Below, one piece after another: positions 8,549 through 11,500 of a DNA stretch of 64,000 nucleotides. This DNA is from Macrostomum lignano (Eukaryota). The stretch covers positions 248,001-312,000 of the forward strand of contig NIVC01000224.1 of NCBI GenBank assembly GCA_002269645.1. Direction: 5' to 3'. The translations under genes and the position numbers were made by a program. The number at the start of each line of letters is the position of its first letter. The stretch's first letter is position 1. The notes under the pieces were generated by a model, which saw nothing but the letters and a program-made list of their open reading frames with translations, ran no database searches and was not told the origin of the DNA.

Positions 8549-11500
8549 ATGTCTCTCCACAGTCTGCCCTCAGCAACTCCAAACGCCACCGATCACCGCT
8601 CCTCATTCGTCTCCTGCTCCGTCAGCAGCCCCTACAAACTCTCCCATCGCCTGCTGCTCGCCTCCCTCGGCTCTCTGCTTGCCGGCTACGTGACCTTCGT
8701 CAACGCGGCCATCTTTGCCGTCTTCCTTCGCGACCGCAGCGTCCACCGCGTCCCCGGTCACGTGTTCATCGTCGGCCTGATGGTGAGCAGCGACATTCTT
8801 GTCGGCATGCTGGCTCTGCCGGGCTACCTGGTGAGAACCCTGTGCGGCGGCTGGCCGCTGCCGAAATGGTCCTGCGACCTGTGGATCACGGTGGACTACA
8901 TCAGCACTAACGTTGGCATGCTGAGCGTGACCACTGTTGCTTTCGACAGATTTTTAGCTACTAACTTTGTGTTCCTGCACAAGCGCTGGATGCACCGCGC
9001 CAATCAGCTCCGTCTGTGCGCCGCGGTGTGGCTCGTCACCTCCGCCAGGTGCATCGCCACCTTCCCCATGTGGGCCGTGCTGTCCGGCTTCCGGGCCAGG
9101 GAGGCCTTCGGTGCCTGCGGCCATCCGATTTACCAGGACACCGCGGCGGGCATCGCACACCGGACGGTGGCCTTGTACATCCCCATCGTGCTGCTGGTCT
9201 TCTTTTACGGCGCTGTGGTATTCCGCATTCTCAAGTCCTCTCGCGCTTTTGGTGCCACTTCGACCAACGCGGTGAGTCTTAGATAGATAGATAGATAGAT
9301 AGATAGATAGATAGATAGATAGATAGATAGACAGATAGATAGATAGATAGATAGATAGATAGATAGATAGATAGATAGATAGATAGATAGACAGACAGAT
9401 AGATAGATAGATAGATAGATAGATAGATAGATAGATAGATAGATAGATAGATAGATAGATAGATAGATAGATAGATAGATAGATAGATAGATAGATAGAT
9501 AGATAGATAGATAGATAGATAGATAGATAGATAGATAGATAGATAGACAGATAGATAGATAGATAGATAGATAGATAGATAGATAGATAGACAGATAGAT
9601 AGATAGATAGATAGATAGATAGATAGATAGATAGATAGATAGATAGATAGATAGATAGATAGATAGATAGATAGATAGATAGATAGATAGATAGATAGAT
9701 AGATAGATAGATAGATAGATAGATAGATAGATAGATAGATAGATAGATAGATAGATAGATAGATAGATAGATAGATAGATAGATAGATAGATAGATAGAT
9801 AGATAGATAGATAGATAGATAGATAGATAGATAGATAGATAGATAGATAGATAGATAGATAGATAGATAGATAGATAGATAGATAGATAGATAGATAGAT
9901 AGATAGATAGATAGATAGATAGATAGATAGATAGATAGATAGATAGATAGATAGATAGATAGATAGATAGATAGATAGATCTGAAGGCTGCGTACGGCTG
10001 TTCAGTCCAAGGATCCCCTAGAAGGCATTGACTTGTTGATTCTTAACAGATCTTATCTATCTTCTTGGGTTGCTGCGCAAGTACTTTCAAGAACGTGCAA
10101 GATCTTCGCTATGATAATACTTAGGGTAATGTAGTGATCCGCTAGTTGGTGTTAGGCGTCCCACTTTGTCAGCAGTCTCCCTCGCCCTCGCCCTGGGTTG
10201 CTGTCTGCCGCTGGTCAGCTTCCCGCCCCTTTGGCCCGTCTGTTGCTGCCCTTGGCCTGTTCTGCCCTTCGGCGTCTCTGTTCTCAGCCCTTAGCTTCTC
10301 TGCTGTGGGCTGTCTCTGTTTCGTTCCCGTCCCGTTTTCCTCTGTCATGTGAGCAAGTCACATGACAGACTCTGCGTTCTTCGAGTCCTAAAGTGCAGTA
10401 AACATGTTTACTGCACTCGTTGGCCCTGTTTACCGGGAGAATCACGTGCTTTTGGACCCCTCCCTTCTCTAAGGAGGGGAGTGACTCATGTTGCTAAAAA
10501 TAGCAACTGAGTCACAGCCGCGTGTACTCTGGCCGGAGACCTCAAGTGACGTCAGTTCTAAAAATAGAACGAGTCACGAGGTCTTGCGCGCACTGAGACC
10601 CTGCCTCGAGATCTCAAGTGACGTCAGTTCTAAAAATAGAACAAGTCACGAGGTCTTGTGCGTGGGTGTTTCCCGGCTATAAATAGGACCCCTCTCCCCT
10701 TGTTTCCGTCAAGGATTTTGGCTTCTTATCTGCGGAGAATTCACTAAGAACCCGTGTGCGTCAGTGTCTAACTAAGTGCCCTTTGCGTACTGAATCCGTT
10801 TGTACTGGTCTGACTGAGACCCCACTAAAGCCCAAGCCTAAGGGAGGCTAACACTGCCTTCCTAGCCACCCCTGAGCCCGGCGGGGATCTGCTGATCAGG
10901 ACGCCTTGTTCATTAATCTGCAAATCTGCACACTGTGCTGAGTTCGTTGACTTGTTTATTTCGTTCCGACGGGAAGCTCACCTCATCGAAGGCCGAGACC
11001 TGAAGGAACTGGTGGCAGCACTACCTACGCTACTGAGAGAGTTGAGAGAACTTCCCACTGAAGAGGCTCAAGATTAAGGTAATCCGCAAGGGCCTAAACC
11101 GGGAAGAAAACCCATTGTACTTCACTGGTGGCAGCGGTGGGATTCAAAGACCTACCAGGCCACCCGAGAAAAACGCTATCTATTTCACTGGTGGCAGCGG
11201 TGGGATTCAAAGACCTACCAGGCCACCCCGAGAAAACCATTGTATTTCACTGGTGACGCAGCGGTGAGATCCGACTACGACACACCCAAGCCAACCGCTC
11301 TTTCGAGAACGACTTCGGCCAGCGACTACTACGAGTTCAACATGTTCAACGAACGAGACGAGAGCCGGTGCAGCAGCCGGCGGATCAGCACATCAGCAGT
11401 TCGAGGCCTGCGGCAGCGGACGCCGCAGCAGCAGCAGCGATCAACGACCTTGGTCAGCAGCCGACGCCGAGGCGAGGTGCCAGAAGCGACGTGTCCGACG

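Follow-up and report, generated by a model that had tools for sequence, protein, structure and literature searches.

Two tRNA-Lys primer binding sites (PBSs) are reported for Drosophila gypsy, the second of which does not prime and lies at the 3′ end of the RNA (PMC1635307), and the PBS of yeast Ty3, an element in which the genomic PBS is inherited and plus strands that copy the tRNA accumulate as dead ends, has been described as bipartite (PMC5371799). During reversion in culture, HIV-1 PBS mutants gained more than one PBS (PMC1084362). The imperfect PBSs of mouse ETn, MusD and IAP elements were read as escape from 3′ tRNA fragments (PMC7472051), and the preference of mouse endogenous retroviruses (ERVs) for imperfect PBSs is read in the same way in bioRxiv 10.64898/2026.01.22.698655. 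For the tandem arrays of Cassandra, a TRIM element, template switching and unequal crossover have both been invoked (PMC7215508). The accessible parts of PMC10886601 and PMC13524379 contain nothing on arrays of inner PBSs, and the terms “PBS” and “primer binding” are absent from the main text and five supplements, as accessible, of the LTR catalogue of the host (PMC12801592). No description of a variable U5 PBS cassette was found in the literature within reach; Repbase and subscription journals lay beyond it, and prior notice there is possible.

The window analyzed here, a 64,000-nt stretch of the Macrostomum lignano contig NIVC01000224.1, contains a young Ty3/gypsy LTR retrotransposon, both LTRs of which end in two cassettes of about 63 nt, each composed of a perfect 18-nt tRNA-Leu PBS, a predicted masking fold-back arm and a new CA end. 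Such cassette-bearing LTRs are a real, clade-wide variant of the Ty3/gypsy LTR architecture, and the rule of one PBS outside the LTR is thus broken across a whole clade.

The element and its U5 cassettes

The element spans positions 10130–19309 on the plus strand, to which the positions of its parts given below also refer, and is flanked by the target site duplication (TSD) GTAA at 10126–10129 and 19310–19313. Its LTRs are about 1120 nt each and differ by three substitutions and three one-base indels. The 5′ LTR (TG…CA, 10130–11249, 1120 nt with the two cassettes) is followed by a gag frame with a zinc knuckle (11257–12510), a pol region coding for reverse transcriptase (RT), RNase H and integrase, in that order, over several frames (13166–17659), a polypurine tract (PPT, 18179–18190) and the 3′ LTR (18191–19309), which carries the same two cassettes with PBSs at 19185 and 19249. 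The Pfam matches zf-CCHC, RVT_1, RT_RNaseH, Integrase_H2C2 and rve are arranged in the Ty3/gypsy gene order, and the protease stretch has no Pfam match. Over the RT stretch the element shows 100% identity to a protein assigned by NCBI to M. lignano. The element also has a host-tRNA PBS after the 5′ LTR, a PPT before the 3′ LTR, TG…CA LTR ends and a short TSD, as expected of Ty3/gypsy; what departs from the group is the usual single PBS outside the LTR, with inner PBSs being present in 50 of 92 parsed LTRs, a set partly collected with cassette baits. The 4-bp TSD presumably hints at the Gmr1/Osvaldo clade. This clade is listed for the host together with Mag, CsRN1 and Mdg3/micropia (PMC12801592).

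A TATA-like box is located at 10678–10684 (LTR position 549), from which the U3/R border was placed by inference about 30 nt downstream. There is no AATAAA inside the LTR, and one such motif lies at 18139–18144, about 50 nt upstream of the 3′ LTR. The U3 region at 10482–10626 contains two AP-1-like and two CRE-like palindromes in a duplicated block of approximately 72 nt, and no canonical heat-shock element was found in it. Just upstream of the insertion, a fragment of a rhodopsin-family GPCR gene (Pfam 7tm_1, 8417–9286) ends at a 700-nt GATA microsatellite, and more than 20 different mini- and microsatellite arrays occupy 20478–61855, one of which (40450–42659) has a 21-nt unit in about 105 copies. 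The flanks of a solo LTR (L006, G000:C4574) are those of the full-length element of the window, which makes it either a recombined allele or an assembly collapse.

The array begins with the core LTR end carrying the first CA (11105–11124), which is the real terminus in cassette-free copies. It is followed by inner PBS 1 (11126–11143), a perfect 18-nt complement of tRNA-Leu(AAG/TAG), the fold-back arm of cassette 1 (11151–11164), and a tail with the second CA end (11165–11187), in which positions −5 to −15 are hypervariable. Cassette 2 repeats this arrangement with inner PBS 2 (11189–11206, also a perfect 18-mer), an arm (11214–11227), and a tail with the outermost CA (11228–11249), which is the true LTR end of this copy, the 3′ LTR having the same endpoint before the TSD. 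The outer PBS (11251–11270), which is interrupted by 2 nt inserted after base 5 and has one mismatch, is the putative priming site. Contigs assembled from sequencing runs of two other studies span the PBS–cassette–PBS junctions, and therefore the array is not an artefact of this assembly. Its period had been given in an earlier note on this DNA as 63 and then 62 nt, but the 63 is probably 64, as there is one more C in the 3′ LTR, in a second assembled copy and in the contigs from independent runs. The same note proposed iterative capture of a PBS plus the U5 end, which is right in outline, except that the cassette body is a distinct conserved sequence and not the present leader.

The PBS 20-mer is exact at 11126, 11189, 19185 and 19249, the four positions previously noted, and degenerate at the third site (11251). 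It is the complement of the host tRNA-Leu 3′ end with CCA added and has 12 genomic sites, all eight examined of which were identified by ARAGORN as tRNA-Leu genes (five AAG and three TAG), so the predicted host tRNA does exist; an exact 18-mer is expected by chance about 0.02 times in this genome. The biological match is nevertheless shorter than the 20 nt supposed, since bases 19–20 vary among families, leaving 18 nt. A separate tRNA for the bulged outer site was sought and discarded, there being no tRNA-gene matches at up to one mismatch. When the cassette, leader and U5 were examined for longer pairing to the 5′ part of the tRNA, they did no better than shuffled sequences (p = 0.41–0.53), and the apparent likeness of the cassette to that part is due to the fold-back arm.

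Further upstream in U5 there is a conserved half-site (11009–11025) in which 10 nt complementary to the tRNA-Leu 3′ end precede 5 nt complementary to its 5′ end. It is present in 90 of 91 LTRs at up to two mismatches and is identical at 17 of 17 positions between families 1 (that of the window) and 3, whose RTs are 69% identical; it may be a separate tRNA-binding element. No part of the LTR is better conserved than 11009–11033, which comprises the half PBS and the complement of the tRNA-Leu 5′ end and has the highest contig depth in all four runs examined.

The 23 nt after each inner PBS are predicted to fold back on that PBS with 12 pairs at −19.6 kcal/mol, with folding z-scores of −3.2 and −2.6 for the 41–42-nt hairpins and −2.1 and −1.8 for the whole units. 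Among 22 variants, pairing is kept in 8 of 11 arm substitutions at paired positions, but all of these are transitions, and thus they are confounded by mutation bias. No inner site is bulged, and 56 of 64 are perfect; among outer sites, 18 of 31 in cassette-bearing copies are perfect versus 5 of 39 in cassette-free ones (p = 9e-5, the copies being related and not independent). The tRNA 3′ 18-mer is predicted to bind the inner sites, masked as they are, with a net energy of about −20 to −22 kcal/mol, versus −12 for the bulged outer one. As this still favors the inner sites, the hairpin was rejected as a full thermodynamic explanation of priming from the outer site, and we infer that kinetics, nucleocapsid or leader signals must contribute to the choice of site.

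The innermost end was described earlier as the better inverted match to the LTR start, which holds for the window copy and for that copy only, the ends being hypervariable: 160 of them yield 61 different terminal 12-mers. Within the LTR such variability is not peculiar to the terminal bases, as 62 of 986 LTR windows are equally diverse. The bases before each CA end (11110–11120, 11173–11183 and 11235–11245) are mostly biallelic, often by complementary transversions (G/C, T/A, TT/AA), and occur in all combinations, an unusually fine-scale shuffling next to a primer site.

Length classes and the priming site

In the genome the LTR-core anchor has 132 matches, the cassette body 318, the leader 81 and the PPT plus LTR start 86, and 194 LTR starts were parsed among the matches listed. 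TSDs resolved 59 solo LTRs, 42 of them independent (12 with no cassette, 21 with one, eight with two and one with three), and left 19 further starts unresolved; a matching 4-bp TSD adjoins the end of 42 of the 44 paired 3′ LTRs. In 92 independent LTRs of the solo or 5′ kind, a set biased towards cassettes which becomes 91 once the solo allele of the window's own site is removed, there are 42, 35, 13, 1 and 1 with zero to four cassettes, and among the 55 found without cassette bait there are 26, 21, 7 and 1 with zero to three. The length classes with their own CA ends that had been predicted from the window do therefore exist, from zero to four cassettes, with TSDs verified for classes zero to three and the TSD of the single four-cassette pair identified by eye.

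Under the standard scheme of reverse transcription, the priming site is marked by the end of the 3′ LTR. Among 39 independent TSD-verified LTR pairs (one more was skipped), 18 possess cassettes. Cassette number is equal in the two LTRs of 16 of these 18 pairs, including all 10 with a bulged outer site, which indicates that the outermost site primes even with its conserved 1–2-nt bulge. In addition, 34 of 40 independent cassette-free copies, a count leaving out six leader hits that do not adjoin a PBS, own only the bulged site, so that this site can evidently prime. It is thus likely, to judge from the integrated copies, that the outermost and often imperfect site does nearly all the priming.

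Two elements, C163 and C2478, have one cassette in the 5′ LTR and none in the 3′ LTR, which ends exactly at the inner CA. Both are very young, with LTRs 99.9–100% identical and TSDs intact, and they fit either rare priming from an inner site or gain of a cassette on the 5′ side. The three working primer sites imagined by the earlier note thus find some support in these two elements, though with 16 of 18 pairs being symmetric the use of the sites is not comparable. The asymmetry runs both ways: a related element, C206, has one cassette at the 5′ side and two at the 3′ side, and the tandem C1903/C2137 has zero and one, which contradicts a rule that the 5′ array is always at least as long as the 3′ one.

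Variation in cassette number

Cassettes and LTR ends are reshuffled among closely related copies. Out of 184 LTR pairs less than 1% divergent, cassette number differs in 107, the terminal 12-mer in 154 and the U5 core type in 54; three biallelic sites within 5 nt (positions −9, −8 and −5) are present in all eight combinations, one cassette type follows three non-homologous U5 cores, and a tree of 90 LTRs has 34 changes in cassette number versus a mean of 38.5 with shuffled labels. Seven TSD-verified pairs are available for family 2, including one with 1/2 and one with 2/1 cassettes, and in these asymmetric pairs the 5′/3′ differences fall within R-U5, i.e., downstream of the inferred start site, in 7 of 7 (p = 0.001) and 14 of 15 cases (p = 6e-5), versus 12 in U3 and 11 in R-U5 in an old symmetric pair. 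In C199, C511 and the C2137/C1903 tandem of family 1 the differences cluster in the last 10–50 nt plus the array. These distributions, with the differences mainly in R-U5 or in the LTR end and array, suggest that a single round of reverse transcription drew on two RNA templates. A general excess of 5′/3′ differences at the LTR end was not supported in the 39 pooled family-1 pairs (p = 0.20). Tandem elements sharing the middle LTR occur in several families: L080/L303 (C1903), L087/L233 (C2137), L237–L239 (C3668), L255/L256 (C4250) and L358/L359 (C255).

We consider it probable, reading the mechanism from integrated copies, that the outermost and usually bulged site primes nearly always and that cassettes are gained, lost and shuffled by PBS-anchored template switches between co-packaged RNAs. 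The outer PBS would normally be inherited from the genome, as in Ty1 and Ty3, so that the bulge persists. Nascent DNA ending in a PBS, which could be either a plus strand copied from the tRNA or a minus strand fresh from copying an inner site, would land on another PBS, adding, removing or swapping a cassette and mixing the terminal bases, with a minor share of changes possibly coming from rare inner priming and ordinary DNA slippage. The fold-back arm would probably keep the inner sites from priming frequently, making the cassette tolerable; against this, family 3 has no arm and is symmetric in the two pairs seen (TSD read for one).

It was also suggested that every PBS in the array primes and that LTRs fall into length classes according to the site used. 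Classes zero to four do exist, the 3′ LTRs of C163 and C2478 end where inner priming predicts, the two ends in C2478 share only 4 nt, so slippage is unlikely there, and the computed binding of the tRNA 18-mer is stronger at the inner sites. The pattern is, however, seen in only 2 of 18 cassette-bearing pairs and in none of the 10 whose outer site is weakest, and by the standard scheme inner priming alone should shorten the 3′ LTR only and could not add cassettes, so it leaves the gain in C206 and the C1903/C2137 tandem unexplained. As a general account this is quite unlikely, and it covers a minor share of cases. An ordinary minisatellite, formed by one chance duplication followed by chromosomal slippage or unequal crossover with no link to reverse transcription, is an improbable origin of the array. 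The window is full of minisatellites, and some arrays (C1013, C1140, C1425, C1642 and C206) contain identical neighboring cassettes, but most arrays are mosaics of different ends. Where the same insertion site was assembled more than once, cassette number agrees in 15 of 16 cases, and most of the variation is found between insertions. The exception (C1425 vs C3999) is a DNA-level change or an assembly error and, like the identical neighbors, speaks against an account purely at the level of reverse transcription. Cassette number is nearly always equal between the LTRs of an element whereas it differs between near-identical elements, the asymmetric pairs are biased to R-U5, and slippage cannot place a cassette on non-homologous U5 cores.

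Other families and known systems

Three other families in the genome have RTs 75%, 69% and 69% identical to that of the window family and almost no LTR similarity to it, and in each of the three both LTRs possess perfect inner PBSs. A bulged outer site is present in 9 of 12 leader hits of family 2 and in both copies seen of family 3, the inserted bases differing between families, and the outer site of family 4 is perfect. The fold-back hairpin is kept in families 2 and 4. The cassettes of families 1 and 2 are identical at 28–31 of 33 nt, versus 42% at RT third codon positions, which means either strong constraint or exchange between families. In family 4, further degenerate PBS modules are stacked upstream of the cassette (L358:1500–1680), one of which agrees with the PBS over its first 12 nt alone, as many as Ty3 copies of its primer. 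In a scan of metagenomes, 22 of 25 hits were G-rich repeats without the full 18-mer. The marine metagenome sequences L278, L285 and L293, which share one assembly prefix and thus one source, contain unrelated tandem arrays of tRNA-Leu PBSs with CA-ending spacers and no fold-back arm; L285:1324–1683 (minus strand) is a 359-bp non-coding element with five sites, inverted ends and a 4-bp duplication. The tandem pattern gave no hits in viral contigs.

It is possible, though doubtful, that the cassettes are selected decoys, with perfect inner sites soaking up 3′ tRNA-Leu fragments and the bulged outer site escaping them. Perfect inner and bulged outer sites with different inserted bases in three families, together with the conservation of the cassette between families 1 and 2, are in line with such a function, as is the finding that the commonest PBSs of mouse ERVs are imperfect, which was read as escape from tRNA fragments, tRF3a being mismatch-sensitive (PMC7472051). 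On the other hand, cassette-free copies are as common (26 of 55 without cassette bait) and as young, so the cassette is dispensable, and the outer sites of family 4 are perfect. Moreover, a masked site would soak up few fragments and a perfect site lying open in cis would attract silencing, and tRNA copying versus genomic inheritance gives the contrast between perfect and bulged sites without selection. A decoy function could nevertheless sit on top of outer priming with template switching. We regard as unlikely the broader idea that the cassette is a mobile self-masking PBS module which hops among tRNA-Leu LTR families with the PBS as a landing site, diversifies the integrase-facing end at single-base resolution, shields the bulged primer site from tRNA fragments and recurs in other marine animals.

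A natural series of zero to four sites, perfect and bulged, in a laboratory flatworm allows two questions to be tested: how the priming site of an LTR element is selected, and whether PBS sequences are shaped by tRNA fragments. The annotation of LTRs and PBSs, LTR-based dating and counts of solo LTRs can err in cassette families, because the ends and the U5 differences need not stem from age.

Judged by the accessible text of the sources cited at the outset, gypsy and Ty3 resemble the window family in that a Ty3/gypsy RNA offers its primer tRNA more than a single site. In them the 5′ PBS alone is needed for cDNA synthesis and the extra site is single and located at the 3′ end of the RNA, whereas the window family stacks complete PBSs in U5, in variable number and with their own usable CA ends. 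Plus-strand transfer as described for Ty1 and Ty3 would explain the persistence of the bulged outer PBS and supply dead-end plus strands copying the tRNA, although the accessible text of PMC5371799 mentions no cassette gain or U5 length polymorphism of the kind seen here. The arrays of Cassandra resemble the cassettes in their repeated LTR–PBS junctions, but their unit is the whole element (LTR, PBS, internal part and PPT), as opposed to 62–85 nt inside the LTR with no PPT; a tandem TRIM array was ruled out, the repeat unit here being the PBS, arm and LTR end only. In mouse ERVs, as in the window family, the commonest working PBS is imperfect and occasionally reverts to perfect; there is one PBS per element, and no perfect inner copies are described in the accessible text. 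In the HIV-1 mutants multiple PBSs arise in reverse transcription, as we propose for the window family; those forms are transient and belong to engineered viruses, whereas the element described here possesses a natural conserved cassette copied into both LTRs.
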